Shown: positions 9,031 through 59,477, numbered from the stretch's first letter. The stretch: 61,711 nucleotides of DNA from an uncultured Pseudomonadota bacterium (GCA_937889395.1 CALAOW010000083.1:1-61711); one strand, 5' to 3'. Notes: generated from the letters alone by a model not told the origin. Numbers and translations are program-made.

Positions 9031-10239
9031 ATGATTCAATCAACTCACGAAGACGCTTCCTTCAAGCTGCTCGATCGCGCCATTGCCGGACATCGGCTCA
9101 GCGCCGGCGAGATACGCCGCCTCTACGATTTGCCCACAAACGATCTGGCGGCGGCGGCTCACGAATTACGCCTGCGCCGTGGCAACCCGGAGCTGGCGAC
9201 CTACTCCATCGGCGGGAATATCGATTACACGAACATCTGCGTCGTCGCGTGCAAATTTTGCGCGTTCTATCGTGCCAGGCACCAGGAGGGCGCCTTCACA
9301 CTCACGCTCGATGAAATCGCGGATCAGATGGACGAGCTCAAGCGAATCGGGGGGCGCGATGCTCTGCTTGAGGGCGGCATCAATCCCGACTTGCCATTTC
9401 AGTGGTATTTGGATCTGCTGCGGTTTCTCAAATCGCGCTATCCGGAAATCCACATTGATGCATTCAGCCCCGAGGAGATTCTCGGCCTGGAGAAGCTGAC
9501 CGGCCGCGATGCGTGGGATATTCTCTGCGAGCTGAAGGATGCCGGACTCGATGGCATGCCCGGCGCCGCGGCCGAGATCCTGGTTGACGAAGTGCGCGAA
9601 CGCACCGCACCGACGCGGATGAAGACCGGAGACTGGTTCCGAATCATCGACTCGGCCATGAAGGCCGGCCTGCACAATCCGTGGACAGGGATGGTCATCG
9701 GATTCGGCGAGACGCTGGAACAACGCGTTCAGCATCTGATCGCGCTGCGCGATCAACAGGATCGCGGATTAGAGCGTTACGGTTGCGGCTTTTCGGCGTA
9801 CAAGATATGGCCCGCACGCCTCGAGCATACTCGCCTGAACGGGACCACTCCTCCTGCCGATAATGATGCGGTCGTCAATGAGTACTTACGCGACGTGGCG
9901 GTCGCGCGACTTGCGCTCGACAACATCGAAAATCATCGCGCGGTCTGGCGCACGATGGGCTTCGAGGTCGCGGGCCGGGCGCTGCGCTCAGGAGCAAACG
10001 ATCTCTGCGGCACCGGGTCGATCAACGCGATTAACGCTTGCATCACGGCGGCCGGCAAGGATTTGCCCGACCCAACCGAGGCGATGATCCGTGACGTAGT
10101 GAAATGCATCGAAGCCGCCGGCTTCACTGCTGCGCTGCGCGATCCCTATTACAATATTCTTAAGCGCCACGAATCGACCAAATTGGAATCGACCAAATTG
10201 GAAGAATTGCCCGAATCAGCACTGGCTGCGGGAAAGTAA
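9031..10239 (+). CDS. Radical SAM protein of the MqnC/MqnE/CofH subfamily
   Basis: AGGAGA RBS, then ATG at 9031. NIDYTNICVVACKFCAFYR (CxxxCxxC), LLEGGINPDLP, IHIDAFSPEEI, AGLDGMPGAAAEILVDEVR, GMVIGFGET..RVQHLIALRDQQD. Confidence 0.8.
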   Translation: MIQSTHEDASFKLLDRAIAGHRLSAGEIRRLYDLPTNDLAAAAHELRLRRGNPELATYSIGGNIDYTNICVVACKFCAFYRARHQEGAFTLTLDEIADQMDELKRIGGRDALLEGGINPDLPFQWYLDLLRFLKSRYPEIHIDAFSPEEILGLEKLTGRDAWDILCELKDAGLDGMPGAAAEILVDEVRERTAPTRMKTGDWFRIIDSAMKAGLHNPWTGMVIGFGETLEQRVQHLIALRDQQDRGLERYGCGFSAYKIWPARLEHTRLNGTTPPADNDAVVNEYLRDVAVARLALDNIENHRAVWRTMGFEVAGRALRSGANDLCGTGSINAINACITAAGKDLPDPTEAMIRDVVKCIEAAGFTAALRDPYYNILKRHESTKLESTKLEELPESALAAGK

Positions 10240-24477: not shown

Positions 24478-25041
24478 CTACTTCGAGCGTGACAGGTACT
24501 CGCCGGTTTCGGTGTTGATCGTGATCGTGTCGCCCTCGGCGACGAAATGCGGCACCTGGATCGTCATTCCGGTCTCGAGCGTCGCCGGCTTGAGCGTATT
24601 GCTCACGGCAGCCGTCTTCATTCCCGGATCGGTCCGGATCACCTTGAGCGCCACCGTTTTCGGAAGCCGGACGTTGAGCGGCGTCGTTTCATAAAACTCG
24701 ACTTCGACTTCGAGGTTCGGCGTCAGAAATCCCACCACGTCCTCGATCAGCTCCTTGGGAATCGTGATCTGCTCGTAGTTCTCGGTGTTCATGAAATGGA
24801 AATCGTCGCCGTCCTGGTAGAGGAACTGCATCTTGTTCTGGCTCAGGATGACCCGCTCGACGCGATCTTCCGACCGGAAACGGTTCTCGGTTTGCGATCC
24901 CGTCTTCACGTTGCGCAGCTTGGTCTGCACCATCCCGCGCCAGTTGCCCGGCGTGATGTGCGTGATCATCATGATCCGGTACAGGTCTTTGTTGTACTCG
25001 ACAATCATACCCGGGCGCAGTTGCGTCGCTTGAATCAGCAT
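24478..25041 (-). CDS. efp: Elongation factor P
   Basis: Full-length EF-P pattern (MLIQATQLRPGMIVEYNKDLYRI...KPATLETGMTIQVPHFV.EGD.I.INTETGEYLSR). Confidence 0.95.
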   Translation of the reverse strand: MLIQATQLRPGMIVEYNKDLYRIMMITHITPGNWRGMVQTKLRNVKTGSQTENRFRSEDRVERVILSQNKMQFLYQDGDDFHFMNTENYEQITIPKELIEDVVGFLTPNLEVEVEFYETTPLNVRLPKTVALKVIRTDPGMKTAAVSNTLKPATLETGMTIQVPHFVAEGDTITINTETGEYLSRSK

Positions 25042-25144
25042 TGTATGGACACTCTCGATAAAGAACGAAGGTTAAGAGAGTAATTCTACGCAAGCCCGCA
25101 GCGCGCGGCAAGTTTTTTGCGCGCCAATCTTGCGAGCGCGCCGC

Positions 25145-25176
25145 CACTGAAACACTAAAACACTAAAACACTAAGG
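25145..25176. repeat. 4 x 8-bp tandem repeat (CACTRAAA-like) in the efp upstream region
   Basis: cactgaaa cactaaaa cactaaaa cactaagg, about 105-135 nt upstream of the efp start on the opposite-strand coordinate. Confidence 0.9.
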
Positions 25177-25209
25177 ATATGGATCGATCGCGCGGCTTGA
25201 CCCGTGCGG

Positions 25210-25347
25210 CTACGGCGATTGCCGGTAGCGCTCTACCGTTTGCTTTATCTGACGCGAGAGCTTCAAGAATATATCGCCCTCGTCGTAGATGAAGAGCACG
25301 AGAGCGCCGCCGGCTCCGACAATCAAACCCAGGATAAATGCGCCCAT
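25210..25347 (-). CDS. Small (45 aa) single-TM membrane protein, hypothetical
   Basis: GGAGGAG RBS 6 nt before the ATG at 25347. MGAFILGLIVGAGGALVLFIY followed by a charged tail. The longer track ORF (to 25485) runs into repeat DNA. Confidence 0.5.
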   Translation of the reverse strand: MGAFILGLIVGAGGALVLFIYDEGDIFLKLSRQIKQTVERYRQSP

Positions 25348-25403
25348 ACTTTCGCTCCTCCGGATAACCCGGATTATATTCAAATCCACCCTCCGAAACC
25401 TAG

Positions 25404-25512
25404 CAGGGGTGCCCCCTGGCCCTGGCGACGGCAGCGCGGTATTAAGCCATTGGCAGGGGCCGCGCGCGACAACGGAGCGCGGCATTAATACCGGGTGCAG
25501 GGGTCACCCCTG
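25404..25512 (+). repeat. Repeat module A (about 110 bp, bounded by CAGGGGTnnCCCCTG hairpins), left copy
   Basis: Aligns in direct orientation with 28747-28855 (shared CCCTGGCCnTGGCGAC, GTATTAAGCCnTTGGCAGGGGCCGCGC, CAACGG, CAGGGGTCACCCCTG). Confidence 0.85.
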
Positions 25513-25525
25513 CCAGGAGTGCCCC

Positions 25526-25628
25526 CTGCACCCAGTGAAAAGATGCGGCCTGACGGCCTGTTAGAACAGGTTAAGGGGCAGACAGGTCGCTCTTTTTTTT
25601 GTGTCATTCTAGAGCGAAGCGAAGAATC
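25526..25628 (+). repeat. Repeat modules B (ctgcacccagtgaaaagatgcggcctgacggcctgttagaac) and C (T-run + gtgtcattctagagcgaagcgaagaatc), left copy
   Basis: The reverse complement of 28661-28749 matches these modules. Module C recurs at 28437, 28542, 28661(-), 59125(-) and 59182. Confidence 0.85.
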
Positions 25629-25741
25629 CCGGATTCTTGCCTCGCCCTGTATCGGGAGAGGCCGACGCGAGTCGGCGAGCGTCGGGTGAGGGACATCTGT
25701 GCGGCGCGATTGTCTGACGCGCCGCACAGGGTCACCCCTGC

Positions 25742-28351
25742 TCAGTCCTTCTTGATGAATCCGGCCGGGACGGCAGCCGCAACCAGCAGCAACATCCATC
25801 CGATGAATAGCTGAATTAGCGAATAGAATTCATATCTCCAGTACCCGATACCCTCAATCAGCCGCCAATGCGACTTCTGGCCAAGGTCGAAGGGACTAAT
25901 GACATCGAGCGAATAAAGAGGTGCATGGAAGCGGGGATAAGCTGGCGTCAGTTCTTCCATCTTCGAATTTTCGTAATCCGTGTAAGCTGCCTGCTCGGAG
26001 GGAACGAGCACGTTGGCAGAGTGGGCGCGCGAGAACACACAGGTTCCTATGAGCACCAACAGCACGAGCCAGCCGAACGCCCGCCACGGTTTGTACCCGT
26101 AGCCGACGGCGAGATAGAGAAACCAACTACGGATCCAACCCAAGAAGCCGAGATGGCCGCGCTTGCGCAAGTCCTTCTGCTTGGCGATCGCAACTTTCGC
26201 GACCTGATGCTCATGGCCGATCCGCCGCAGGACGGCGATTAACTGCTCGTATGGCTGGGGAAGATAACCTTCGTTTTCTGGCTGCAAGCCCAGCCACCTG
26301 AGCCGCTCCTTCGCAATGATCGGTGCTTTCTCATCGATCGGTGCTCCCGCACCGGCCGGCGCTTTCGCATCGATCAATGGTTTCGGATCGGGTACCGCAT
26401 CTATGCGGTCATAGACGAACCCATCAAGATGCAACCCTCCCTTTTCCGGCCAGCTAGACTCCTGATCGGCCAAGGGTCCTACCTTCGCATCGGTCAAGTT
26501 CAATGATCGCTTCCATTTCTTGTCTCGAAAGTCAGGGTGGGCGTCCTTGTGGATGTTTTGCCAAAGGAACGGCCCGGTAATATGGGCGCTATCAAGATTT
26601 AATTCGTCCAGCCAGGCGTCATCGACCTCCAGTTGCCCATTTACTTCTGCTCGGCACAGCCATACTTCGCCTTCGGCAACGAATTTGTCGCGCAGCAAGA
26701 CGCTGCCGTGCACCTTAATGCTGTCGGCGTTCAAGGCGATGGCCTCGCCGGTCACTTTGGTGCCATCTGCGTTCGGGGCGTTTTCGTCCGGCCTTTTGAA
26801 TCTTCCGCCCGTTGCATCTAGATCGCCCCCGATGGTAGCGCCGAGCAGCCGCACCTCGCCCTCGGCGCTGAAGGCTTTCCTCAGGAAGATGTCGCCCGTC
26901 ACCTTGATGCCGTCGGCGTTCAGGGCGGTCTCATTCTTAGTGCCGTCAGGATTCAAGGCGTTTCCGCTCGGCTTTTTGAATGTTCCGTCCGTCGCATCCA
27001 AATTGCCGCCGATGGTAGCGCCGAGCAGCCGCACTTGGCCGTCGGCGCTGAAGCCCCGCCTCAGGAAGACGCCGCCGCTCACCTTGATGCGGTTGGCGCT
27101 CAGGGCGGAGCCTTTCGGATTTAGATTCTTAAATGTTCCGCCGTTCGCATTAAGGTCACCCCCGATGGTCGCGCCGTGCAGCCGCACCTCACCCTCGGCG
27201 ACGAATTTGCTCTGGATTTCGTCTTTGGCGTTCAACTCTCGCGTCATAAAGACGCTACCGTCGATCTTGGCGCGGTCGGCGTTCAAGGCGTACCCTTCCG
27301 GCTCTTTAAATGTTCCGCCTCTCGCATCCAGACTGCCGCCGATGGCCGCGCCGACTAGGCGCATCTCGCCCTCGGCAGCGAATTTGCGGCGCAGCAAGAC
27401 GTTGCCGCCCACCTTGATGCGTTCTGCGTTCAGAGCGGTTTCATTCTTGGTGCCGTCGGAGTTCAAGACGTTTCCGCACGGCTTTTTAAATGTTCCGCCC
27501 GTCGCGTCCAGATTGCCCCCGATAGTCGCGCCGAGCAGCCGCACCTCGCCCTCGGCGTTGAAGCCGCTCCTCAGGAAAACGCTGCCCGCCACCCTGACGC
27601 CGTCGGCACTCAGGGCTTTCCCGTTCGACCTTTTGAATGTTCCGCCGTCGGCCTCTAGGTTGCCCCCGACGATCGCGCCGAGCAGCCGCACTTCGCCTTC
27701 GGCCATGAACTCATTCTGTACCTTGCCCTCGGCGTTCAGCTCTTGCTTCATAAAGACGTTGCCGCCGATCTTGGCGCCATCGGCGCTCAAGGCCTTGCCG
27801 CTCAGGTTTTTGAATGTTCCACCTTCCGCACTCAGATCGCCCCCGATGGTCGCACCGAGCAGCCGCACCTCACCCTCGGCGTGGAAACCACCGTTCAGAA
27901 AGATATCGCCCTCCAACTTAAGCCCGTCGGCATCTATCGCCCGGGGCCAACTGCCCTTCAGGCTGAGCAGGGGCATCTTCGCATATTCCAAGTCAACATC
28001 GCGTTCCACACGGCAGCTCAACAGGGCAAGAGGGAAAAGCACGTTGGTAAAGCTGAGGTCGAGGTCGCCCGTTATCCGGGCGCCCTGAATCCAGACGCCC
28101 TTCGGATCGACCAGCTCGCGGGCTTCATGATCGACGACAAGCCAGCGGATAAGATCGGCGCGGACGTTGCGCGTTTCCGGCCATTGTTCGCCGAGAGGCC
28201 TAGGCGTTCCGTCGACATTCTGCAGATCTTCGTCTCCGCCGAGATCGCGGCAATCTGCTGTGGTCCCGCCGGGCGCGGCCTGTAGGACCCTTCCCTCGGC
28301 CTCAGACAGGAACGGGAACTTTTTCCGCGCCATTCCCTCCAGTGTGGCCAT
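25742..28351 (-). CDS. Repeat-built (predicted beta-helix) membrane protein of unknown function, 870 aa
   Basis: GGGGGAG RBS, then ATG at 28351. There are 7-8 tandem units of about 50-60 aa (AEGEVRLLGATIGGNLDATGGTFKKP..ALNADGIKV.G.VFLR..F) and a C-terminal hydrophobic domain (WFLYLAVGYGYKPWRAFGWLVLLVLIGTCVF ... LIQLFIGWMLLLVAAAVPAGF). Confidence 0.8.
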   Translation of the reverse strand: MATLEGMARKKFPFLSEAEGRVLQAAPGGTTADCRDLGGDEDLQNVDGTPRPLGEQWPETRNVRADLIRWLVVDHEARELVDPKGVWIQGARITGDLDLSFTNVLFPLALLSCRVERDVDLEYAKMPLLSLKGSWPRAIDADGLKLEGDIFLNGGFHAEGEVRLLGATIGGDLSAEGGTFKNLSGKALSADGAKIGGNVFMKQELNAEGKVQNEFMAEGEVRLLGAIVGGNLEADGGTFKRSNGKALSADGVRVAGSVFLRSGFNAEGEVRLLGATIGGNLDATGGTFKKPCGNVLNSDGTKNETALNAERIKVGGNVLLRRKFAAEGEMRLVGAAIGGSLDARGGTFKEPEGYALNADRAKIDGSVFMTRELNAKDEIQSKFVAEGEVRLHGATIGGDLNANGGTFKNLNPKGSALSANRIKVSGGVFLRRGFSADGQVRLLGATIGGNLDATDGTFKKPSGNALNPDGTKNETALNADGIKVTGDIFLRKAFSAEGEVRLLGATIGGDLDATGGRFKRPDENAPNADGTKVTGEAIALNADSIKVHGSVLLRDKFVAEGEVWLCRAEVNGQLEVDDAWLDELNLDSAHITGPFLWQNIHKDAHPDFRDKKWKRSLNLTDAKVGPLADQESSWPEKGGLHLDGFVYDRIDAVPDPKPLIDAKAPAGAGAPIDEKAPIIAKERLRWLGLQPENEGYLPQPYEQLIAVLRRIGHEHQVAKVAIAKQKDLRKRGHLGFLGWIRSWFLYLAVGYGYKPWRAFGWLVLLVLIGTCVFSRAHSANVLVPSEQAAYTDYENSKMEELTPAYPRFHAPLYSLDVISPFDLGQKSHWRLIEGIGYWRYEFYSLIQLFIGWMLLLVAAAVPAGFIKKD

Positions 28352-28436
28352 TCGCTCCCCCTGCACGGGCTATTGTCTAGCGTCCCACGCGGCATAACGC
28401 GATAGCCGCCGCGCCAGCAAACAATCGAAGCTCCGC

Positions 28437-28687
28437 GTGTCATTCTGAACGAAAGCTGCTGAAGTGAAGAATCCCGGATCCGGGGTCCCTCCACTCCGCA
28501 GACTCCGGTCGGGATGACGCAAGAAAAGCGCGCGACCCCTCGTGTCATTCTGAGCGAAAGCTGCTGTGCTTGAGCCGAAGCCCTGAGCGAAGCCGAAGGG
28601 GAAGAATCTCGACGGATGCCCGGCGTCCGGCGTCGGCCAGACACGCGCTGGCGCGCGCGAGATCCTTCGCTGCGCTCAGGATGACAC
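28437..28687. repeat. Cluster of module-C hairpin repeats (two direct, one inverted, plus a degenerate fragment)
   Basis: gtgtcattctgaacgaaagctgctgaagtgaagaatc (28437-28473), gtgtcattctgagcgaaagctgctg...gaagaatc (28542-28608), and inverted gatccttcgctgcgctcaggatgacac (28661-28687). Confidence 0.85.
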
Positions 28688-28694
28688 AAAAAAA

Positions 28695-28855
28695 GTTCTA
28701 ACAGGCCGTCAGGCCGCATCTTCTCTTTTCACTTTTTCACTGGGTGCAGGGTCACCCCTGGCCGTGGCGACTGCCGCGCAGTATTAAGCCGTTGGCAGGG
28801 GCCGCGCCCGCCAACGGCGGGCGGCCTTAACACTGAGTCCAGGGGTCACCCCTGG
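28695..28855. repeat. Module B (inverted) fused to module A (direct), right copy
   Basis: gttctaacaggccgtcaggccgcatcttctcttttcactttttcactgggtgcag is the reverse complement of the left module B with an internal agtgaaaa duplication. It is followed by module A at 28747-28855. Confidence 0.85.
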
Positions 28856-29017
28856 TGCGTCTGTTTCTCCCACGGCCGAGAGCGAGAGACGCGGCTCGCG
28901 CGTATCTCGCGATTTACCTTGCGCCCCCGTCGCAACGGGCGCCCACCGCGCAGGTGATTCTTCCTTCATGCGCTACTGCTCTACGCGCACGGGGTCACCC
29001 CTGCTATCGTCATAGTA

Positions 29018-30028
29018 GTGGCAAATCCCGAAATAACCGATCGTCCCGGCCCTCCCGCATCCGCCGAGGCGGCCGCTTTCGACTCCGCTTACGATGCGGT
29101 CATAAGCGCGGCGGGCGTGCTCGTCCTCGACGGCCGAATCGTCGTGCGCGTGACCGGCGACGATCGCGCCTCGTTCTTCCACGGCATGTGCACCGCCGAC
29201 GTAAAGGGCGCCAAGCCCGGTTCAATCCTGCCCGCGCTGTTTCTGACCGAGCACGCGCACGTGATCGCCGACGCGTTCATCTGGGTGACCGGCGATGCGC
29301 TCGTGCTCGATATCGACTCCGATGCGTGGACGCGCACGCGGGCGCATCTTGAGCGCCTGCTGGTCGCCGACGATGTCGAATTCGAAGAACTGGGCGAGCT
29401 TGCCCTGATCGACGTCGAGGGACCTGCCGCCCGCGGCGCGGCCTGCTCCGCTGAAGTGGATGCGTCCCTGCCCCCATGGCGCTTCATCGAAGCCGGCAGC
29501 TCGCTAATCGGCAACTTGCCTCGTTACGGCGGACCCGCTGTATCTGTAATCGCTTCGCGCGATTCGATCGATTCGACCATCGCCAACATACTTGCCAAAG
29601 CGCCGCATTCGCGCCGCGTCGATTCGAGCCCGCTCGAAACTATCCGCGTCGAGAACGGCATCGCACTCATCGGGGTCGATACCACTGACAAGACGATCGC
29701 ACTCGAGGCGCGGCTCGATCGTGCAATCTCGTTCTCCAAAGGATGCTACCTCGGGCAGGAAACTATCGAGCGAGCGACCGCGCGCGGCGGTTTGAAAAAA
29801 CGGATGTTCGGACTTAAGTTCAGCAATGCGCATGTGCCGCCCGTCGGCGCGGTCGTCAATCTGGCCGGGATCGAAGTCGGCCGTGTGACCAGTGCCGTGC
29901 GCTCGCCGCGCTTGGGCGCGATCGGGCTTGCGATTTTGCACCGCAGCGCATGGACGCCCGGGGTTGAGTTGAAGATTGGCGGAGACGGTGCCGCGATCGT
30001 GACTGATTTGCCGTTCGCGCAGAGTTAA
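29018..30028 (+). CDS. ygfZ: Folate-binding YgfZ/CAF17-family protein (GcvT-like fold; Fe-S cluster / tRNA modification associated)
   Basis: Signature KGCYLGQE (SFSKGCYLGQETIERA) and a GcvT-like N-terminal domain. GTG start. Confidence 0.8.
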   Translation: MANPEITDRPGPPASAEAAAFDSAYDAVISAAGVLVLDGRIVVRVTGDDRASFFHGMCTADVKGAKPGSILPALFLTEHAHVIADAFIWVTGDALVLDIDSDAWTRTRAHLERLLVADDVEFEELGELALIDVEGPAARGAACSAEVDASLPPWRFIEAGSSLIGNLPRYGGPAVSVIASRDSIDSTIANILAKAPHSRRVDSSPLETIRVENGIALIGVDTTDKTIALEARLDRAISFSKGCYLGQETIERATARGGLKKRMFGLKFSNAHVPPVGAVVNLAGIEVGRVTSAVRSPRLGAIGLAILHRSAWTPGVELKIGGDGAAIVTDLPFAQS

Positions 30029-36563: not shown

Positions 36564-37850
36564 TCAGGCGCGAACTTGTCCGGTCCCGCCAACGACGTAC
36601 TTGTAGGTGGTCAACTCGTTGAGTCCCATCGGTCCGCGCGCGTGCAGCCGATTCGTCGAGATCCCGGTCTCTGCGCCGAATCCGAATTCGAAACCGTCGG
36701 TGAAACGCGTTGACGCATTGACGTAAACCGTAGCCGAATCGACCTCGCGTTCAAAGCGCGCCGCTGCTTCCGTGTCGCTGGTGACGATCGCGTCCGCAAG
36801 ATGAGACCCGTGACGCGCGATAAACGCAATCGCCTCGTCAAGCGAATCCACCACTTTCACCGCCAGTATCAGGTCCAGATATTCCGTGTCCCAATCTTCG
36901 TCCGTCGCCGCGCGCGCCGCGGGAACGATTTTTCGCGTCCGCTCATCGCCGCGAATTTCGACGCCCGCCGCCGTCATCCGCGCGGCGAGCGCGGGCAGAA
37001 ATTTTTCCGCGACCCCGCGATGCACCAGCAGCGTCTCCATCGAATTGCAGACCGATGGCCGCGAGCATTTCGCGTTCATGCAGATTTCCTCGGCCATCTT
37101 CAGATCGGCCGCGGAATCGACGTAGGTGTGGCAGATACCGTCAAAATGCGGCAGCAGCGCAACCGCCGAGCCTTCCAGCGCCTCCTTCAACGACTTGCCG
37201 CCGCGCGGGATTATCAGGTCGATCAACTCGCGGCTGCGCTTCATTATCTGGATTACTTCGCGATCCGGATCGCGGATAAAGGTCGCCGCGTCGGGATTCA
37301 GCCCCGCGTCCTTCAACGCTTGCGAGATCAAACCGGCCAGAAATCCGTTGCTGCTTAGCGCTTCGCTGCCGCCCCGCAACACCACCGCGTTGCCGGCTTT
37401 CAGCGTCAGCGCGGCCGCATCCACCGTGACGTTGGGCCGAGATTCGTAAATGATTGCGATCACGCCGATCGGCACACGCCGCTTTTCGATCTTCAGCCCG
37501 TTGGGCCGCGTCCACTTCTCGATCGCTGCCCCGACCGGATCGTCGAGCGCCTCGACTTGAAGCACGCCCGCGGCCATCGCTTCGATTCGCTTGTCGTCGA
37601 GCGTCAGCCGCTCGACGAACGCTCCGCCGCGTCCGCTCTTGCGCGCGCGCTCCAGGTCGATTGCGTTGGCGCGGATAATTTCCGCGCGTGAATCGCGAAT
37701 CGAGATCGCCAACCGGCGTAGAAAATCGTTTTTCTCCGCCGTGGTGGCCAGCGCCATCCCCGGCGCCGCCGCCCGCGCCCGCCCGAGCGCGGTAACAGTG
37801 TCCGCTTCAATACCCATCCATCTTCGAGAATATATCCCGAACCCACTCAA
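36564..37850 (-). CDS. proA: Glutamate-5-semialdehyde dehydrogenase (gamma-glutamyl phosphate reductase)
   Basis: IYESRPNVT, CNSMETLLVH, VNASTRFTDGFEFGFGAE.GIST.RLHARGPMGL.ELTTYK. Confidence 0.92.
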   Translation of the reverse strand: MSGFGIYSRRWMGIEADTVTALGRARAAAPGMALATTAEKNDFLRRLAISIRDSRAEIIRANAIDLERARKSGRGGAFVERLTLDDKRIEAMAAGVLQVEALDDPVGAAIEKWTRPNGLKIEKRRVPIGVIAIIYESRPNVTVDAAALTLKAGNAVVLRGGSEALSSNGFLAGLISQALKDAGLNPDAATFIRDPDREVIQIMKRSRELIDLIIPRGGKSLKEALEGSAVALLPHFDGICHTYVDSAADLKMAEEICMNAKCSRPSVCNSMETLLVHRGVAEKFLPALAARMTAAGVEIRGDERTRKIVPAARAATDEDWDTEYLDLILAVKVVDSLDEAIAFIARHGSHLADAIVTSDTEAAARFEREVDSATVYVNASTRFTDGFEFGFGAETGISTNRLHARGPMGLNELTTYKYVVGGTGQVRA

Positions 37851-37878
37851 ATAAACTGCGCGCCTTCCGCCCCCATAC

Positions 37879-37971
37879 TTCTAACAGGGACGAAGTCCCG
37901 CATATTCTCTTAGTACCGGGTGCAGGGGTCACCCCTGCCCAAGGAGGTGCGGAACCCACGGTGGGTTCCGC
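37879..37971. repeat. Module B-like repeat + CAGGGGTCACCCCTG hairpin + perfect 11-bp-stem palindrome in the proB-proA spacer
   Basis: ttctaacagggacgaagtcccgcatattctcttagtaccgggtgcaggggtcacccctg parallels 28696-28760. GCGGAACCCAC-g-GTGGGTTCCGC lies at 37949-37971. Confidence 0.8.
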
Positions 37972-37995
37972 ATTCAATAAAGTGGTTCCCCCTCC

Positions 37996-39141
37996 CTACG
38001 CGATCTCCTTGATGAGCACGAAGTTGTCGCGATGGATAATCTCGTCGGCCACCTTGTAGCCGAGCAGAGTCGGGATTTCAGTCGAACGGCGCCCGGCCAC
38101 TTTCATCACGTCGGACGCTGGATAGTTCACCAGTCCGCGCCCGAACTCGACTCCGTCGGGATCGAGCAGGCTCACGCAATCGCCGCCGCCGAAGTCTCCC
38201 CGCACCTCCCGCACGCCCGAGGGTAGAAGAGAACGCCCCCGGTTGCAGAGCGCATCGGCCGCGCCCTTATCGACCGCGATTGAGCCCGCCGGCCGCAGCG
38301 CGAACGCTATCCAATGCTTTCGGCTCTTGAGCCGCACGCCGGCCGGCACGATCAGCGTGCCCGCCTCGCGCGCCGGGTCCAGCGCGATTGTGACGATGCC
38401 GGCTTCGCGCCCGCGCGCGATTATCACGGCGATTCCGGCCTGCGCCGCCTGCCGCGCCGCCTTCAACTTGGTCGCCATCCCGCCGCTCCCCAGCGGACCC
38501 GCATTCTCGGCCACCAGCCCGCGCATCCCGGCCTCCGGATCGTTGATCACGGGAATCAGCCGCGCGTCGCTACGCTCGCGAGGGTCTGCAGTCAGAACGC
38601 CATCCACGTCGCTCAAAATAATCAAGAGCTGCGCCTGCACGAGGCTCGCGACCAGCGACGACAGCACGTCGTTGTCGCCCAGCCGTATTTCCTCGACCGC
38701 GACCGTGTCGTTCTCGTTGACGATTGGAATCACGCCCGCGCCAAGTAATTCAGAAATGGTTTGATTCGCATTCTGACGGCGCCGGCGTTCCGCCAAGTCC
38801 TGATGGGTGAGCAAAATCTGCGCGACGGTCCGATCGTGGATGCCGAATGCGCGCGCCCACGCCGACATCAGCTCGATTTGCCCGGTGGCGGCGGCGGCTT
38901 GCCGCGCCGCGATGGTTGCGCCGTGAAGTTTCGAGAGTCGCGCGCGTCCCGCAGCCACCGCGCCCGACGTGACGATCACGATTTCATAGCCGGCCCGCAC
39001 CGCCGACTCGATCTGCGCCGCGAGCTGCTCGATCACATCGACGCGCAGTCCTTCGGCGTCGGACAACACGGCGCTGCCGACCTTGATCACGATCCGCCGC
39101 GCGCGCGCGACCGCCGGTTCCTTGTAGTTCAGCTGGGACAT
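37996..39141 (-). CDS. proB: Glutamate 5-kinase with C-terminal PUA domain
   Basis: RIVIKVGSAVLSD, IVNENDTVA, GGMATKL, and a C-terminal PUA-like segment. Confidence 0.92.
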   Translation of the reverse strand: MSQLNYKEPAVARARRIVIKVGSAVLSDAEGLRVDVIEQLAAQIESAVRAGYEIVIVTSGAVAAGRARLSKLHGATIAARQAAAATGQIELMSAWARAFGIHDRTVAQILLTHQDLAERRRRQNANQTISELLGAGVIPIVNENDTVAVEEIRLGDNDVLSSLVASLVQAQLLIILSDVDGVLTADPRERSDARLIPVINDPEAGMRGLVAENAGPLGSGGMATKLKAARQAAQAGIAVIIARGREAGIVTIALDPAREAGTLIVPAGVRLKSRKHWIAFALRPAGSIAVDKGAADALCNRGRSLLPSGVREVRGDFGGGDCVSLLDPDGVEFGRGLVNYPASDVMKVAGRRSTEIPTLLGYKVADEIIHRDNFVLIKEIA

Positions 39142-44032: not shown

Positions 44033-45973
44033 ATGCCGTTGCCGTCACGATGCGCCCCTGATAAAGCGAAGGAAGGACGAAGGCATAGGCAGGTGGAGGA
44101 AGCGGGAATCCCAGGCGCGAATCAGCGTCATTTTGGCATCTCGGCCAAGCAGAAGCTCTACCAGTTTCTGTGCTCGCGGCCGGCGGGCGCCGACGCGGGC
44201 GAGCTGGTCGGGCTGCTGCTGAGCGGAGCCGGCTCGGACCCTGAGCTCGGCGCGCGAATTGTCCGCCAGCTACTCGACGGCGATCCGAATTTCATCTTCG
44301 ACGCCGACACTGCCCTGTGGCGGCTTGCGCAGAGCGATCGCATCCGCGTTGCGCTCGACCAGGCCGAGTTCACGGTGGTCGATCTGGAAACCACCGGCGG
44401 ACGCGCCGGCCCGGGCACGATCATCGAGATCGGCGCATACCGGATGGTCGGGCGGCGGCTCACCGAAACTTTCTCGACGCTGGTGCGGCCGGATGGCGGC
44501 ATCGTCCCGCGCTTCATCACGGGGCTCACGTCGATCACGACGGAGATGGTTCGCGAGGCGCCGCCCATCGAGGATGTGCTGCCCGCGTTTCGCGAGTTCA
44601 TGGGGGAGCGGGTGATGGTCGCTCACAACGCGGCCTTCGATTTTGGATTTCTCGACTTCGAATACCGCCGCATCTTTGGAATTGGCCTCGGCAACCCGGT
44701 GCTATGCACTCTCCGGATGTCGCGCCGGTTCATGCCGTCGCTCAAGCGCCGCCGGCTCGATCTGCTCGCGGAGCATTTCGGGCTTTCGCTCGAAGGACGG
44801 CATCGCGGACTGGGCGACGCGCGGATGGCCGCGGAGCTGCTCTCGATTTTTCTCGAGATGGCGGAGCGGATGGGTATCACGCGGCTGGATCGCCTGCTCG
44901 ACGACCATCATCGCGGACTTGCGGGCAGGAGAATCGAACGTCACGTGCCGCCGGAGGAAATCGCTGCTATTGCGCATGCGCCCGGCGTTTACATGATGCG
45001 CAATGAGCGCGGCGATTTGCTGTACATCGGCAAGGCGCGGCGGCTCCGGGAGCGGGTGAGCTCATACTTCACGGCGTCGGTGAAGGCAAAGACGGCGGAG
45101 CTGGTCTCGCACGTTTACAAAATCGAGACGCGACCGACGCGCTCGCCGCTCGAGGCGGCGCTCGACGAAGCGCGGCTCATCCGCGAGCTGAAACCACCGT
45201 ACAACCGGATGCTGAAATCGGCGGCGCCCGCGTATTTCATCAAGCTCGACATGATGGACGAGTTTCCGCGCGTGACGATCTCGACAAAGATGAGTGCGCG
45301 GCGCGGCGTGATGCATCTGGGGCCGTTCATCGGCCGCCGCAGCATCGAGCATTCAGTTCGCGCGCTGGCGAGAATCCTCGGCCTTCGCACCTGCGGCGGA
45401 AAGCTCGAGCCGAGCGAGGATTTTTCGCCGTGCATCTATGGGCAGATGGGGCATTGCACCGCGCCGTGCAACCTGGCGATCGACGCAGAAGGGTACGCGG
45501 AGCGGGTTCGGCGCGCGGTTGGTTTTCTCCGCGGGCGGATCGGCCCGCTGCTGGGTGAATTGGCCAAGGCGCGCGACCAGGCCGCGGCCGCGATGCGCTT
45601 TGAGGAGGCGGCGCGCTTTCGCCACCATCTTGAGGCGCTGACCACGCTGGCGCATCGCGCGACCCGTCTCAGCCAGGTGGTGACGGAAAACAATCTCGTG
45701 ATCGTGACAGGCGAGGCGGCCGATCGCGCAGCGCACGTCGTGCTGTCGGGACGGCTTGCGATGACGCGCCATCTGGAGACGGGAGACGCCGCAGGCGAGG
45801 TGGCGGCGTTCGTCGCGGGCAATTACCAGCGATACAAGTTGAAATACGTCGAGCGCGGAGAGTTGGAGGCTATGACGATCGTCGCACGATGGCTCCGGGA
45901 GCGCGCGCCCGACGAGGGTCGTCTCATCTATCTGGCCGGTCCGCATCTGGATCCCGTCGCCCTGGCGGGCTGA
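44033..45973 (+). CDS. DEDDh (DnaQ-like) 3'-5' exonuclease fused to a GIY-YIG / UvrC-N-half (Cho-like) nuclease
   Basis: Exo I VVDLETTGG, Exo II AHNAAFDFGFL, Exo III H.GLGDARMAAEL. GIY-YIG GVYMMRNERGDLLYIGKA..LRERV.SYF. Cys-rich UvrC-type segment C..C.YGQMGHCTAPC and UVR-like motif MRFEEAARFRHHLEAL. The start is uncertain. Confidence 0.75.
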   Translation: MPLPSRCAPDKAKEGRRHRQVEEAGIPGANQRHFGISAKQKLYQFLCSRPAGADAGELVGLLLSGAGSDPELGARIVRQLLDGDPNFIFDADTALWRLAQSDRIRVALDQAEFTVVDLETTGGRAGPGTIIEIGAYRMVGRRLTETFSTLVRPDGGIVPRFITGLTSITTEMVREAPPIEDVLPAFREFMGERVMVAHNAAFDFGFLDFEYRRIFGIGLGNPVLCTLRMSRRFMPSLKRRRLDLLAEHFGLSLEGRHRGLGDARMAAELLSIFLEMAERMGITRLDRLLDDHHRGLAGRRIERHVPPEEIAAIAHAPGVYMMRNERGDLLYIGKARRLRERVSSYFTASVKAKTAELVSHVYKIETRPTRSPLEAALDEARLIRELKPPYNRMLKSAAPAYFIKLDMMDEFPRVTISTKMSARRGVMHLGPFIGRRSIEHSVRALARILGLRTCGGKLEPSEDFSPCIYGQMGHCTAPCNLAIDAEGYAERVRRAVGFLRGRIGPLLGELAKARDQAAAAMRFEEAARFRHHLEALTTLAHRATRLSQVVTENNLVIVTGEAADRAAHVVLSGRLAMTRHLETGDAAGEVAAFVAGNYQRYKLKYVERGELEAMTIVARWLRERAPDEGRLIYLAGPHLDPVALAG

Positions 45974-46001: not shown

Positions 46002-49000
46002 CTATTTCTTTGCGTGCGTGCCCTTGCCGGTCAGAACGACAGAATTCGGCGAGTTACTCGCGTTGCTGTTGATCGTGAGTATGCCGCTGCGCCAGCCGTA
46101 GCCGGTCGGCGAGAACCGGATAGTCACCGAGCATTTGGACTGGGGTCTGATCGTCGCCCTGCAGCCGTTCACCATCGCGAAATCGCCGCTGGTGACGATG
46201 CTCGAAAACGTGACCGACGTGTGCTTGCTCTTGTTCTTGATCGTGACGTGCCGGGGCTTGCTGACGGCGCCTCTTCCGAACACGACCTTGCCGAGCTTGA
46301 GCCAATTTGGTGAGACCTTAAGCGCGGCAGGCACCGCGGTTGCAGTAGGAGTGGAAGTCGCAGTGGCGGTCGCAGTCGGTGTCGCAGTCGGTGTCGCCGT
46401 TGCTGTCGCAGTAGCCGTCGCTGTCGCTGTCGCAGTAGCCGTTGATGTCGGCGTGTTAGACGCGGTTGCAGTTGCAGTGGGCGTGGCGGTTGCCGTCGCA
46501 GTTGCCGTAGCCGTCGCAGTTGCGGTCGGCGTCGCGGTACTGGTCGCGGTCTGAGTCGCGCTGGCGGTTGCGGTCTGAGTTGCAGTGGCAGTTGTGGACG
46601 CGGTCGGAGTCGCCGTTCCAGTTGCGGTATTGGTCGCAGTAGCCGTTGAAGTCGGCGTGCCAGTACTGGTCGCGGTATCGGTTGCCGTCGCAGTCGGCGT
46701 GCTGGTCGCAGTTGCCGTTGCGGTATCTGTCGCTGTGGCTGTCGCGGTTGGCGTGTCAGTTGCCGTTGCAGCGACAGTATCTGTCGCGGTCTGAGTCGCA
46801 GTTGCCGTTGCAGTATCGGTCGGCGTTGCAGTCGGCGTATCAGACGCGGTCGCTGTTGCAGTCGCAGTGGCAGTCGGCGTTGGAGTCGCAGATGGTATCA
46901 TCGGGTCATTGAAAAGAAGCACGCGATTGTTCGCTTGGTCCGCGGTGTAGAGGTTGCCAACCGGATCCATCGCAACGCCGGCCGGCTGGCACATCGCGGT
47001 TGCGCTTGGCGGGGGGTTGCCGTTGGCGGAGTCGGCGCAGGCGCTGTCGATGAAATCGGTGCCGCTCGCACCTTGTCCAAAGACCTGGTCGGCGGTGACG
47101 TTGCCCGTCGCCAGGGGCTGGTTGTATTCGAGCACGCGATTGTTGGTCTGGTCGGCGACGATCAGGTCTCCTGAACTGTCGAGGCTAATGCCGGCGGGAT
47201 TGCAGATTCCGGTGGCGCTCGGCGCGGGCGACGCCGCCGCGCTCGCGCATAGCCGGTCGCGAAACTCGTCCCCATCCCACCCTGGCCGAAAACCAGATCC
47301 GCGGTCGTGTCGCCCGCGCCGGTTAATAGATTCGGCGCGGCCAGCGGTTGATTGAATTCGAGAACTCGCGAGTTGTCCACGTCGGCGACGAACAGGTCGC
47401 CATGCGGGTCGATAACCAGCCCGCGCGGAGCGCATAGCGTGTCCGCACTCGGATCGCTGCCGCCGTTGCAGAGCCCGGTGCTGAAAATTCCGCTCTGTCC
47501 GAACACGTTGTCGGCGACCGTATCGCCCGCGTTGAACTCGAGCACGCGATTGTTGTTCGTATCGGATACGTACAGATCGCCCAACGCATCGACTGTCAGA
47601 CCTTCGGGGAAGCACATCGTAGAGGCGTTGATGGTGCCCGTGCCGAGGTTGCATCCGGTGGTCGTGAAGCTGCCGTCTTGTCCGAACACTTGACTGGCGG
47701 TCAGTCCGACGATCGGCGAGCCGAAGTCAAATGGAGTAGTGTATTCGAGCACGCGATTATTGGTGGCGTCTGCCACATACAGATCACCCGAACCGTCCAC
47801 TGCCACGTCCTCCGGATTGCAGAGGCTGGCCGGTCCGATTCCGCCGTCGTTGCAGCCGATGGAGAGCGCATCAGGCTGCCCGCTGACGAGAGTGGCGGGT
47901 TCGTCGTTGGCGAACGCGCCGGCGTCGGCCCATCCGAGCACGCGATTGTTTACCGAGTCGGCGACGTAGAGGCGGTACGGCGAGCCGCCGCTGGGATCGA
48001 TCGCGATTCCCTCCGGCGCCTGGAGCGCGGCCGCAGTCGGATTGTTGATTCCGTTGTGAAGCAAGTCGGCCTGTCCGAGCACCGCGCTGGCAAAAGGCGG
48101 AGACGACAGTGGACTGGTGTACTTGAGGACGCGGCTGTTTGACGCGTCGGCGACGAAGACATCTCCCGGACCGTCCACCGCAACTCCGTCGGGCTGGCAT
48201 AGGACGGATCCACTCGGTGCGATCCCGCTGGCCGCGGTGCCGCCGCAGACGCCAGTGGTGAAGCTGCCGTTCTGACCGAAGACGACGTCCGCGGTCACGT
48301 CGCCGGCGGCGAGCGGGGTCAGATATTCGAGCACGCGACTGTTGGTGATATCGTTCACGAACAAATCGCCCGCGCTATCGAGAGCTATTCCGCTCAGGTC
48401 GCACAGGCCGGTGGCGCTAGGCGCGGGATCGCCTCCATTGCCGTCATAGCAAGTGGAGTCGGTAAAATCGGTTCCGCTCGAGCCCTGGCCGAAGACCAGA
48501 TCGGTGGTGACGTTGGCGGCGCCGGGCGGCGCCAGCGGCTGATTGAATTCGAGCACGCGATGATCGCCGTCGTCGCCGACGTACAAATTTCCCGGCCCGT
48601 CCACGGCGACCGACAATGGGTTGCACATCCCAACTGCCGAAGGGCTGCCGGTGTCGCAAGCATGGCCGGTGAAGTCGGTGCCGCTCGCGCCTTGTCCAAA
48701 GACGAGGTCCGCAGTCTGTAGCCGGCGTTGTATTCGAGCACGCGATGATTGCCCGCGTCGGCGACGTAAAGATTGTTGCTCGAGTCGGTTGCGACGCCCT
48801 GCGGAGAACACAGGCCGGCTGCCGTTTGCGCGCACGTCGTCTGGGTGAAGCTGCCGCCCTGTCCGAATACAACATTCGCCGCAAAGCCGACACTGATTCC
48901 CTGCGTGAACGGCTGATTGTATTCGAGCACTCGACTGTTGAGCGTATCCGCGATGTAGAGGTTGCCCGCGCTGTCCACGGCGACGCCGCCCGGCAGGCAC

Positions 49001-49419
49001 AGACTATCTGGGCCCAGGCCCGCGAGGTCGCCGCCGCCGGTGCCGCTGTTGCAGCGCGTAGTTCGAAAATCGGGTTGGCCGATCTCGATGTCTGCGTTCT
49101 GGCCGTTGACGAAACTGGTGGCGTCGTTCCATCCGAGGATGCGGCTGTTGTTGCCGTCCACGATGTACAGATGCTCGGTTCCGCCGCTCAGATCGATGGC
49201 CATCTGGCCTGGAGATTCGAGACTCGCCGCGCCGGTGTTGTTGATGCCGTTGTGCGAGAAGTCGATTTGTCCGAGCACCGCGTCCGCGATGTTGTCGCCG
49301 GTCGCCGCTATCAGCATCGTGACCATGAACACCGTGACGACGGATACGAGCGCGATGGCGCTCAGACGAAGTTTGGAAATTACTCGCGACGGTTTTTGCG
49401 TGGTCGTGCTGTTTTCCAT
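46002..49419 (-). pseudogene. NHL-repeat surface protein with Thr/Ala/Pro linker and C-terminal Ig-like domain, interrupted by two 1-nt frameshifts
   Basis: Three overlapping track ORFs (48394..49485, 47162..49000, 46002..47654) each carry the same NHL-type units (GNLYVAD..NNRVLEYN.P....ADLVFGQ.G.F....C). The sense reading passes from one frame to the next near 48727 and 47250. There is an N-terminal signal anchor (MENSTT...LSAIALVSVVTVFMVTMLIAA). Confidence 0.75.
46336..46890 (-). repeat. Low-complexity coding tract of about 185 aa of (Thr/Ala/Pro/Ser) units (ATATATPTATPT...)
   Basis: Degenerate short tandem DNA units (gtcgcagtngc / gttgc(a/c)gt). It also generates the antisense V/A-rich pseudo-ORFs 46135..46554 and 46585..46794. 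Confidence 0.85.
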
Positions 49420-49667
49420 TTGACGCCGCGCAATCGATCCGAACCAGCGCGGGGCGATATGGAAAGCAATGTCGTGCTCGCGCAATAGCGAAGTAAGTGG
49501 GGTGACAAATTGTGCCTAAACATACTGCAGCGCGCTCAGTGAGGCGCGTCGCGGGGGATGGCCGCCTCCTGCAGGCGGCATTTGCGTAGGGTGTGAGTCA
49601 GTGGGATTGCAGATCCGATCGAATCGCAATCCACCGACAGAGATCGGAGATCAGTTCCTGGGCTGCT

Positions 49668-59124: not shown

Positions 59125-59290
59125 GGTTCTTCGCTACAGCAGTTTTCGCTCAGAACGACACGTGAGACCGCTCGCTTTTTTGTGTCATCCTGAGCGCAGC
59201 GAAGGATCTCGCGCTTCCAGCGCGGATCGATCCAGCACCAACATTGGGTTATGCAAAGCTCTCCTGACAGGGAGAGGACGAAGGTGAGGG
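59125..59290. repeat. Inverted pair of module-C hairpin repeats plus a 'ctctcctgacagggagagg...ggtgaggg' module (D)
   Basis: 59125-59161 is the reverse complement of a module-C copy (GTTCT/AGAAC stem). 59182-59208 is gtgtcatcctgagcgcagcgaaggatc. 59259-59290 parallels 25641-25693. Confidence 0.8.
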
Positions 59291-59477
59291 TCCAATTACA
59301 TTACAGCGCGCCCTGTTTTTCCCTTCTTAATACTGGCCTCCCGTGCCCACGGGCGCTCGCGATTCAGGATTCTGCCTCCGCCCACAACACATCCGGACGT
59401 TATGCAAACCTCTCTTCGAGTTCAGGGATGAACTGTTCAGCCTGACGCCGCCTCGCCCGGCGTGTTACGCGTACTGA

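Follow-up and report, generated by a model that had tools for sequence, protein, structure and literature searches.

Repeat arrays around an accessory-gene slot between efp and ygfZ probably belong to a dispersed family of palindromic elements in Binataceae

When a gene lies between long arrays of repeated DNA, the question is whether gene and repeats travel together or have merely come to lie side by side. We asked this of the spacer between efp and ygfZ in a 61,711-nt stretch of DNA from an uncultured bacterium deposited as Pseudomonadota (GCA_937889395.1, CALAOW010000083.1:1-61711), in which a gene for an 869-residue repeat protein is bracketed by repeat modules termed A, B and C. The whole stretch, here called the window, is the sole part of this genome at hand (61.7 kb), and proteins identical or nearly identical to those it encodes carry the source name Candidatus Binatus sp. 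An earlier reading of the sequence alone had offered two explanations, an accumulation of miniature inverted-repeat transposable elements (MITEs) or repetitive extragenic palindromic (REP) elements in two spacers, and the footprint of a mobilized or recombined cassette. With a probability that we put at about 80%, the bracket is a local accumulation, in the spacers of a hypervariable accessory-gene slot, of a lineage-wide family that resembles REP elements, bacterial interspersed mosaic elements (BIMEs) and Neisseria intergenic mosaic elements (NIMEs). The repeats surround the slot without defining it and do not mark the termini of a transposable cassette, and repeats and gene turn over independently: all modules are dispersed, their hairpins are kept with compensatory changes, and alternative slot genes leave remnants behind.

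The resemblance between the two flanks is real and lies far beyond chance. Copies of module A are direct (25407-25512 and 28749-28854, 85% identical over 106 nt, or 86% over 100 nt with an E value of 9e-20 in a second comparison), and copies of module B are inverted (25537-25567 and 28695-28725, 97%) and share letter for letter the 26-mer GATGCGGCCTGACGGCCTGTTAGAAC, for which shuffled sequences give an expectation of 0. Beside B stands an inverted 18-mer of 100% identity (junction J, 25524-25541 and 28734-28751), and the core palindrome GGGTCACCCCTG occurs at 10 sites in the window against 0.2 expected. The sequence-only reading had placed all these orientations correctly to within a few bases, and the runs T8 and A7 that it named are present in the flanks; its count of one C copy on the left and three on the right also stands, except that it overlooked a degenerate fourth copy on the right (28478-28520, minus strand).

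With the left flank read as its reverse complement, C, the A-run, B, J and a palindrome P are collinear with the right flank, the left having 25 nt more between A-run and B, and the core of A (about 80 nt) is the sole part that is not. The geometry is that of two inverted composites pointing inward, one of which has its A core turned round. Modules B and C look inverted because each flank bears a P-Acore-P-J-B-(A-run)-C composite that points inward, and A looks direct because the A unit on the left is a distinct copy that is turned the other way inside the left composite, where it adds a copy of the palindrome (25497-25513 beside 25514-25528). Module A itself consists of a core of about 78 nt between two copies of P, and it has inverted arms of 27 nt that are 81% complementary. 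This arrangement is not an assembly artefact, because two contigs from other samples (L002 and L009; related loci are given L numbers throughout) match the window at 99.9% over 12-16 kb.

All three modules belong to a mosaic intergenic family built around the palindrome P, GCAGGGGTGACCCCTGCACCC. Within the window, the last 26 nt of A recur at 37914-37939 (26/26), and an inverted pair of C copies lies at 59136-59214, where 39/39 nt equal 28655-28693. Scanning one genome per species for the 21-mer P recovered at least 119 stretches, nearly all from metagenome-assembled genomes of Candidatus Binatus or other Binataceae and several per genome on separate contigs. The family layout, read from 140 oriented copies of P, runs from a hairpin H1 (GTGAAACCC-N4-GGGTTTCAC) through a short linker, P and a second linker (agtRttaag) to a third module, which is the B hairpin (mostly GATGC-GGGAC-TTC-GTCCC-TGTTAGAA), a hairpin atcgcaaaatggcg..cgccattttgc, or the A core; C often follows, and then types D (CCTCGCCC..GGGAGAGG) or E (TTCCCCTTCCC..GGGAAGGGG). 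About 899 kb of P loci hold 176 copies of P, 89 of H1, 41 of B, 37 of E, 27 of D, 17 of the A core and, on a strict pattern, 19 of C; a looser scan of all loci for the 5' end of C gave 115 rows, many of which represent one efp locus recovered from several samples, with chance matches in coding sequence accounting for some others. The composite P-Acore-P-J-B likewise stands at unrelated loci (L021, L034, L123 and L127), and inverted doublets, 130-200 nt apart, are found at five more loci (L054, L055, L056, L086 and L136). These copies bear out the first of the two explanations offered earlier, in that every module recurs at unrelated loci, both in the window and in many Binataceae genomes.

This modular family is apparently undescribed; no paper combining Binatota with 'repetitive extragenic palindromic' was among the top ten full-text matches of a literature search in which either term sufficed. 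The same 21-mer GCAGGGGTGACCCCTGCACCC is also repeated in alphaproteobacteria (L023, L049, L079, L090 and L094, Polymorphobacter; L069, Stellaceae), in a different flanking context (gcctccggcgg-P-ggttgtttg). By our own estimate about 0.3 chance matches would be expected in the whole collection, which points to convergence or shared machinery.

Conservation in this family acts on hairpins. In an alignment of 31 H1-P-B elements (loci L025-L134 and window positions 37874-37982), three local hairpins place 97.9% of cells in standard pairs, compared with at most 51% when partners are slid, and changes on both sides of a pair number 22 cells against 6.6 in shuffles, with 0 of 500 shuffles reaching that value. 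Pairs in H1 switch between UA and CG in 7 sequences and between AU and GC in 10; stems of B occur as GGGAC/GTCCC (26 copies), GGGC/GCCC, GGGGC/GCCCC and GGTGC/GCACC, and as GGCC/GGCC in the window. The central hairpin of the A core has two alleles, both able to fold, each of which is present in the window (v1, GCCGCGCTCCGTTGTCGCGCGCGGC, at 25458-25483; v2, GCCGCCCGCCGTTGGCGGGCGCGGC, at 28800-28825). The invariance of P carries no weight either way, because the loci were found by P. A long-range pairing between P and B proposed by RNAalifold was rejected as a general structure in favor of local hairpins, because the variants of the B stem, the GGCC/GGCC of the window included, keep the local hairpin and not the long-range pairs. 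Variants of the H1 stem covary with the six bases that follow it (GTGAAACCC..GGGTTTCAC-GCTTCC versus GYGGAACCC..GGGTTCCRC-ACCTCC), and the ACCTCC type yields CACCTCCTT, which resembles the 3' end of 16S rRNA.

The elements also have a preferred place. A same-strand open reading frame (ORF) with a high GC content at third codon positions (GC3) stops just upstream of P at 89 of 129 sites, and the median distance from stop to the start of P is 55 nt, so that the element begins directly after the stop codon; since ORF calling is noisy in DNA of 62% GC, this placement is to be read as a tendency and the orientation bias as approximate.

Whether the slot and its repeats move as one can be judged from contigs that encode exactly the same EF-P, together with a sister lineage and more distant ones. 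Among the contigs with identical EF-P, the 869-residue gene lies between ygfZ and a 45-residue ORF in L002 and L009, a 497-residue PIN_4 gene (E 8e-6) takes its place in L001, L003 and L005 and is frameshifted and in pieces in L004, and four contigs (L006-L008 and L010) stop inside the repeat gene. In the sister lineage, with ygfZ about 91% identical, two loci (L015 and L018) carry a 562-residue orthologue with fewer repeats (61% identity), a third (L017) has, on the opposite strand, a gene for the type IV restriction enzyme Mrr (PADLOC mREase_IV, 2e-83), and in a fourth (L016) the slot is empty. Distant lineages have ygfZ, the 45-residue ORF, an unrelated Pro/Tyr-rich protein of about 500 residues and efp, with no gene between ygfZ and the 45-residue ORF. 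The gene is thus present, replaced or absent among related genomes, and since the distant lineages have no slot gene, the repeat-protein gene was acquired in a sub-clade and later replaced, shortened or lost. No transposase or integrase was called in the efp-ygfZ interval of the compared loci, which agrees with the earlier observation for the window, where the interval holds only the 869-residue gene and the 45-residue ORF, and a search of the window for tRNA and transfer-messenger RNA genes gave none that could mark an integration site. The Pro/Tyr-rich protein of the distant lineages (L011-L014 and L149-L153) stands directly after the 45-residue ORF and has a hydrophobic segment at its N terminus and the Pro/Tyr-rich region at its C terminus; it is absent from the lineage of the window and fragmented in L013, L014, L150 and L151.

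Breakpoints between these strains fall in several places. Comparison with L001 gives a region of 98.6% identity that starts beyond ygfZ, takes in A, B and three C copies, and ends at position 28436, the base before the GTGTCAT of the first right-hand C copy, so that the edge of homology (28436/28437) coincides exactly with the edge of the module. The next 1.7 kb of L001 are unrelated and contain the PIN gene, after which a stretch of 101 nt is 95% identical to the final 94 nt of the repeat gene with its stop; extra D and C modules follow this remnant, and homology returns at 25662. In L017, about 100 nt reminiscent of the repeat gene's 5' end stand ahead of the Mrr gene; this locus parts from L015 directly after a P-J unit, and the difference between L016 and L015 starts exactly at the outer end of the P beside the 45-residue ORF. 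The repeats change between strains as well. Copy number of D and C varies between strains with flanks about 98% identical, and the two alleles of the A-core hairpin swap at the same site (v2 on the right in the window, v1 in L001; v2 in L015, v1 in L017), which, between near-identical strains, points to gene conversion as a frequent event among the dispersed copies. The A core of L006-L008 stands at the same site in the opposite, canonical orientation, about 87% identical, with one palindrome fewer and an internal duplication of 21 nt; a simple inversion of the core was considered and rejected, because the flipped copies are too different.

The alternative genes are probably swapped either through homologous recombination between the conserved flanks once DNA has been taken up, or through illegitimate or repeat-edge recombination within the spacers. 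The arrays would then act as hairpin-forming DNA that makes the spacers prone to recombination. The two inward composites may be paralogous, having arisen by local inverted duplication or gene conversion, because a B stem variant and a junction are common to both and unseen at other loci.

The family can be set beside several described systems. REP elements and BIMEs are known from enterobacteria, and the REP doublets of Pseudomonas (REPINs) are mobilized by REP-associated tyrosine transposases, RAYTs (PMC3116915, PMC3184786). Like these, the Binataceae elements are short, GC-rich, imperfect palindromes in many extragenic copies, often after stop codons and often in inverted doublets, and they are conserved far above the surrounding spacers. 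Palindromes of the 20-40 nt typical of REP elements recur in many extragenic copies, counted here across stretches, and inverted doublets able to form a long hairpin, as in REPINs, are seen at the five doublet loci, in L016 and in the arms of module A. The sequences, however, are unrelated, the unit is a three-hairpin H1-P-B element with swappable third modules, and the lineage is Binatota; no Y1 HUH transposase (RAYT) lies in the efp-ygfZ interval. Palindromic units combined with other motifs into a mosaic, the mark of BIMEs, are found here too: P joins H1, J, B, A-core, C, D and E in varying order and orientation. The likeness extends only to architecture, as these sequences are unrelated to the palindromic-unit motifs of E. 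coli.

NIMEs consist of units (RS) of 50-150 bp flanked by 20-bp dRS3 inverted repeats, ATTCCC-N8-GGGAAT, and minimal mobile elements are described with them (PMC1797815). The A core, about 78 nt between copies of a palindrome of 15-25 nt, has this form in the flanks of the window and at L021, L034, L123 and L127, and the gene enclosed by the arrays encodes a repeat protein of the membrane or surface type; the bracketing sequence is CAGGGGTSACCCCTG rather than dRS3, which makes the elements NIME-like in workings but not NIMEs. Unrelated alternative genes between conserved flanks without mobility genes, as in minimal mobile elements, are what the slot contains. With flank identity of 98.6% as far as the breakpoints, exchange by transformation and flank recombination would be conceivable here as well.

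Several points weigh against reading the bracket as a generic accumulation. Both B copies carry GGCC-TGAC-GGCC and the identical 18-nt junction, neither of which appears in any other sampled genome. Members of the family taken at random would thus resemble each other less than these flanks do, a hint of a local event tied to this locus. One replacement breakpoint lies exactly on the edge of a C module, so the repeats may join in gene exchange instead of being bystanders. In addition, the loci of the family scan were chosen for containing P, which makes P invariant by construction, and the copy numbers for this genome cover 61.7 kb of it.

The first of these points could be met by supposing that one inverted, REPIN-like pair existed at the site beforehand and that the gene inserted between its halves. 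We regard such an origin as possible though on balance unlikely, and it is compatible with much of the accumulation described above. The B variant and junction common to both composites would be expected from it, inverted doublets at the required spacing are common in the family, and the empty site of L016 is itself such a doublet (9400-9654, inverted arms 88-89% identical). That doublet, however, is of an H1-P-X type and not P-J-B-C, lineages without a slot gene have no P or one P between ygfZ and the 45-residue ORF, and the arrays hold several extra C and D copies. As the number of these copies differs between strains, accumulation goes on whatever the origin.

Unlikely, too, is an explanation at the level of RNA, in which the hairpins are 3'-end structures (terminators, mRNA-stabilizing elements or multicopy small RNAs) and thus regulatory parts of the neighboring transcripts. 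The post-stop placement and the compensatory changes in the stems fit such a role, as does the copy at 37874-37982, which is sense to proB in the proB-proA spacer and so inside a probable operon. At the locus in question, however, neither composite has H1, each stands upstream of genes transcribed divergently, and a single site can hold the A core in either orientation. No Rfam family passed its gathering threshold anywhere in the window (permissive E values for 25040-29100 returned only a chance-level Antizyme_FSE), terminator-like sites were not enriched over shuffles in a promoter and terminator scan, and the orientation bias is approximate. A role in RNA would leave the bracket itself unexplained.

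More doubtful is the proposal that the P-centered elements and the hairpins of module C are substrates of a dedicated enzyme and that the arrays are programmable exchange sites, at which strains swap accessory and defense genes (PIN, Mrr and membrane beta-solenoid proteins); the enzyme may be a Ssn-type GIY-YIG nuclease acting on single-stranded DNA, a RAYT-like transposase or an IS110-type recombinase. In Neisseria, repeats called NTS are the substrate of the GIY-YIG single-stranded-DNA nuclease SsnA and cluster around variable genes for membrane proteins (PMC11893778). Module C (TGTCATTC-TGAGC-GAA-GCGAA-GAATCCCGG) and NTS (CGTCATTC-CCGCG-MAV-GCGGG-AATCYRG) have in common a GTCATTC..GAATC frame around a short hairpin; the published pattern of Ssn-related motifs, SRM (HGTCWY-N(0-2)-YYVSBRH-N(0-5)-WNVSBRG-N(0-2)-RNCYNB) has 0 matches on either strand of the window, with a mean of 0.68 in shuffles. 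Binatus has a conserved, syntenic, single-copy gene for a single-domain GIY-YIG protein of 82-118 residues beside an SDR gene, which was reached by tblastn with a GIY-YIG consensus, a search that served only as a lead and yielded one gene (L074) and then its Binatus homologues. A C-like copy lies 350 nt downstream of the gene in L142, L145 and L146, and L074 and L148 have a P-type element upstream of it (degraded in L147); none of the Binatus loci compared has C or P on both sides. The link between C, NTS and GIY-YIG is thus only a lead. Separately, an IS110-family transposase (DEDD_Tnp_IS110 and Transposase_20; 4425-5267 in L147 and L148) stands 1.6 kb from the Binatus GIY-YIG gene. In other bacteria, REP sequences are known targets of IS110 elements (PMC1525189, PMC12288879).

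Very improbable, by comparison with all of these, is the cassette with which the question began, in which A, B and C would be the terminal repeats of a non-autonomous element moved in trans. Inverted composites of about 200 nt do bracket the gene, and the gene is missing at this position in more distant lineages. Module A, at about 110 nt with 27-nt terminal inverted repeats and with either orientation at the same site according to strain, is also reminiscent of Correia-like MITEs; for A, however, neither a target-site duplication nor a parent insertion sequence was recognized, and its termini are a palindrome that is dispersed in free-standing form. The sequence-only reading had itself held that repeats found without the gene, or the reverse, together with an ordinary composition, would make the repeats generic, and this is what we find. 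The composites persist with the gene replaced by the PIN gene (L001, L003 and L005) or the Mrr gene (L017), the orthologue in L015 has other flanking modules, the boundaries of replacement fall inside the composites and inside the gene, and no target-site duplication was seen. Three homologues that were looked up stand without the bracket at unrelated loci, where the nearby repeats are the usual elements after the upstream gene, or none. The lower GC content noticed by eye proved marginal: the gene has 59.4% GC against 62.3 +/- 2.7% for 46 other ORFs (z -1.07) and a GC3 of 71.6 against 74.3 +/- 5.5% (z -0.49), so that the comparison of composition and codon usage with the neighbors gave no significant anomaly. 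Gene and terminal repeats do not move together, as they would in a transposon-like cassette, and what survives of the suggested footprint is that the interval is a hotspot of recombination and replacement, with at least one breakpoint at a repeat edge.

Least probable of all is a programmed inversion in which the A core serves as a phase-variable switch for ygfZ, the 45-residue ORF or the repeat-protein gene, since both orientations at one site in strains with 98% identical flanks and the bracket of 27-nt inverted repeats are offset by flipped copies that are only about 87% identical and differ by an extra palindrome copy and the 21-nt duplication (a replacement, not a clean flip), by the lack of a recombinase gene in the interval, and by the distance of about 65-80 bp between the arms, which is very short for invertase synapsis.

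The present occupant of the slot has little resemblance to characterized proteins. Its AlphaFold model (pLDDT 88, pTM 0.78) predicts a short helical N terminus, a beta-solenoid of repeats of about 60 residues (approximately residues 85-650) and a helical membrane domain at the C terminus. The gene contains about seven internal repeats of 180 nt (60 residues) at 26657-27941 that are 61-81% identical; contigs that end inside these repeats, and orthologues of 562-949 residues, indicate that repeat number varies and breaks assemblies. Searches of NCBIfam, PADLOC and PDB sequences gave nothing, Pfam gave only a sub-threshold Pentapeptide_3, and Foldseek against the PDB gave no match below an E value of 1e-3, the weak likenesses being to generic beta-helices (the N-terminal domain of fucoidan lyase, Qnr/MfpA and Ag43). 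Homologues number in the thousands among metagenome proteins of Binatus, Terriglobia and Acidobacteriaceae. The coordinates of the gene, its repeats and the slot boundaries are collected in Table 1.

Table 1. Features of the efp-ygfZ interval and of two dispersed repeat copies, in window coordinates
Feature	Position	Strand	Remarks
efp (elongation factor P), right-hand anchor of the slot	24478..25041	-	Pfam EFP_N/EFP/Elong-fact-P_C; identical protein on 20+ contigs
45-aa small hydrophobic ORF (MGAFILGLIVGAGG...), inner slot boundary on the efp side	25210..25347	-	Called in all related loci
Module A, left: P 25404-25418, ~78-nt core with central hairpin allele v1, P 25497-25513	25404..25513	+	Core inverted relative to the usual family order P-core-P-J-B
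Third P 25514-25528, junction J 25524-25541, B hairpin, tail AGGTTAAGGGG	25514..25578	+	
Left B hairpin GATGC-GGCC-TGAC-GGCC-TGTTAGAAC	25542-25567	+	Stem variant of the family's third hairpin
T8 run and left copy of C (GTGTCATTCTAGAGCGAAGCGAAGAATCCCGGAT)	25593..25634	+	C at 25601-25634, single copy on this side
Module D (CCCTCACC..hairpin..CCTCTCCC-N6-GGGCGAGG)	25636..25692	-	Dispersed type, mostly adjoining C
GC-rich hairpin CTGTGCGGCGCG..CGCGCCGCACAG and half palindrome AGGGTCACCCCTGCT	25697..25742	+	Touches the stop codon of the 869-aa gene
3' end of the 869-aa gene kept as a remnant elsewhere	25742..25835	-	95% remnant downstream of the PIN gene in L001/L003/L004/L005
869-aa repeat-protein gene, present occupant of the slot	25742..28351	-	ATG at 28351; ORF reaches GTG at 28366
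Head-to-head C pair: C#1 (+) 28437-28479, degenerate copy (-) 28478-28520	28437..28520		
C#2, long-insert variant of C	28542..28615	+	Related copy at 59136-59162
C#3 (GTGTCATCCTGAGCGCAGCGAAGGATCTCGCGCGCGCC), 28650-28687, and A7 run	28650..28694	-	28655-28693 39/39 identical to 59176-59214 (reverse complement)
B 28695-28720, J 28734-28751 with TTTTCAC duplication, P 28746-28760	28695..28760	-	
Module A, right: P, core with hairpin allele v2 (GCCCGCC-GTTG-GCGGGC), P 28839-28855	28746..28855	+	Canonical orientation of the family if read in the direction of the gene
Solo half palindrome GGGGTCACCCCTGCT, 13 nt upstream of ygfZ start	28991..29005	+	Kept in all related loci, empty site included
ygfZ-like gene for a folate-binding protein (GCV_T family), anchoring the slot on the left	29018..30028	+	
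Complete canonical element H1-P-B in the proB-proA spacer	37874..37982	-	Modules dispersed within this genome
Inverted C-module pair in an unrelated spacer	59136..59214	both	

Further observations in the window concern the surroundings of these features. Between efp and the 45-residue ORF lies an 8-nt tandem repeat of three units (CACTAAAA-like, 25145-25174), with one unit fewer in L001. The genes on either side of the H1-P-B element are proB (AA_kinase and PUA, 37996-39141) and a proA-like aldehyde dehydrogenase (36564-37850), and the C pair near the end of the window is followed by a D-like motif, CTCTCC..GGAGAGG..GGTGAGGG (within 59136-59300). Three long ORFs at 46002-49485 on the minus strand overlap in different frames, all with NHL beta-propeller repeats and common internal repeats, and represent either one frameshifted or misassembled large gene or tandem paralogues. 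At 44033-45973 on the plus strand, a 646-residue protein fuses an RNase_T-type exonuclease domain to a GIY-YIG nuclease domain.

If generic intergenic repeats have piled up locally to form the bracket, the 869-residue gene is not to be annotated as part of a transposable unit. Binataceae, a widespread uncultured lineage of soil and peat, carry a strongly conserved modular repeat family with a 21-nt palindrome, three hairpins and a preference for the region after stop codons; such a family will disrupt assembly and mislead gene callers, and its copies may mark 3' ends. In the efp-ygfZ spacer, a small and clean hotspot, near-identical strains hold different accessory genes, among them a restriction enzyme and a PIN nuclease, beside the arrays. 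For the NIMEs of Neisseria the association between arrays and variable genes has long been debated, and its link to an enzyme is recent. If a dedicated enzyme does act on these repeats, the system would be a Binatota counterpart of the NTS/dRS3 minimal mobile elements of Neisseria, with the three-hairpin element as its unit; in any case the efp-ygfZ slot offers a tractable test, within metagenomes, of whether arrays of hairpin repeats promote the exchange of genes.

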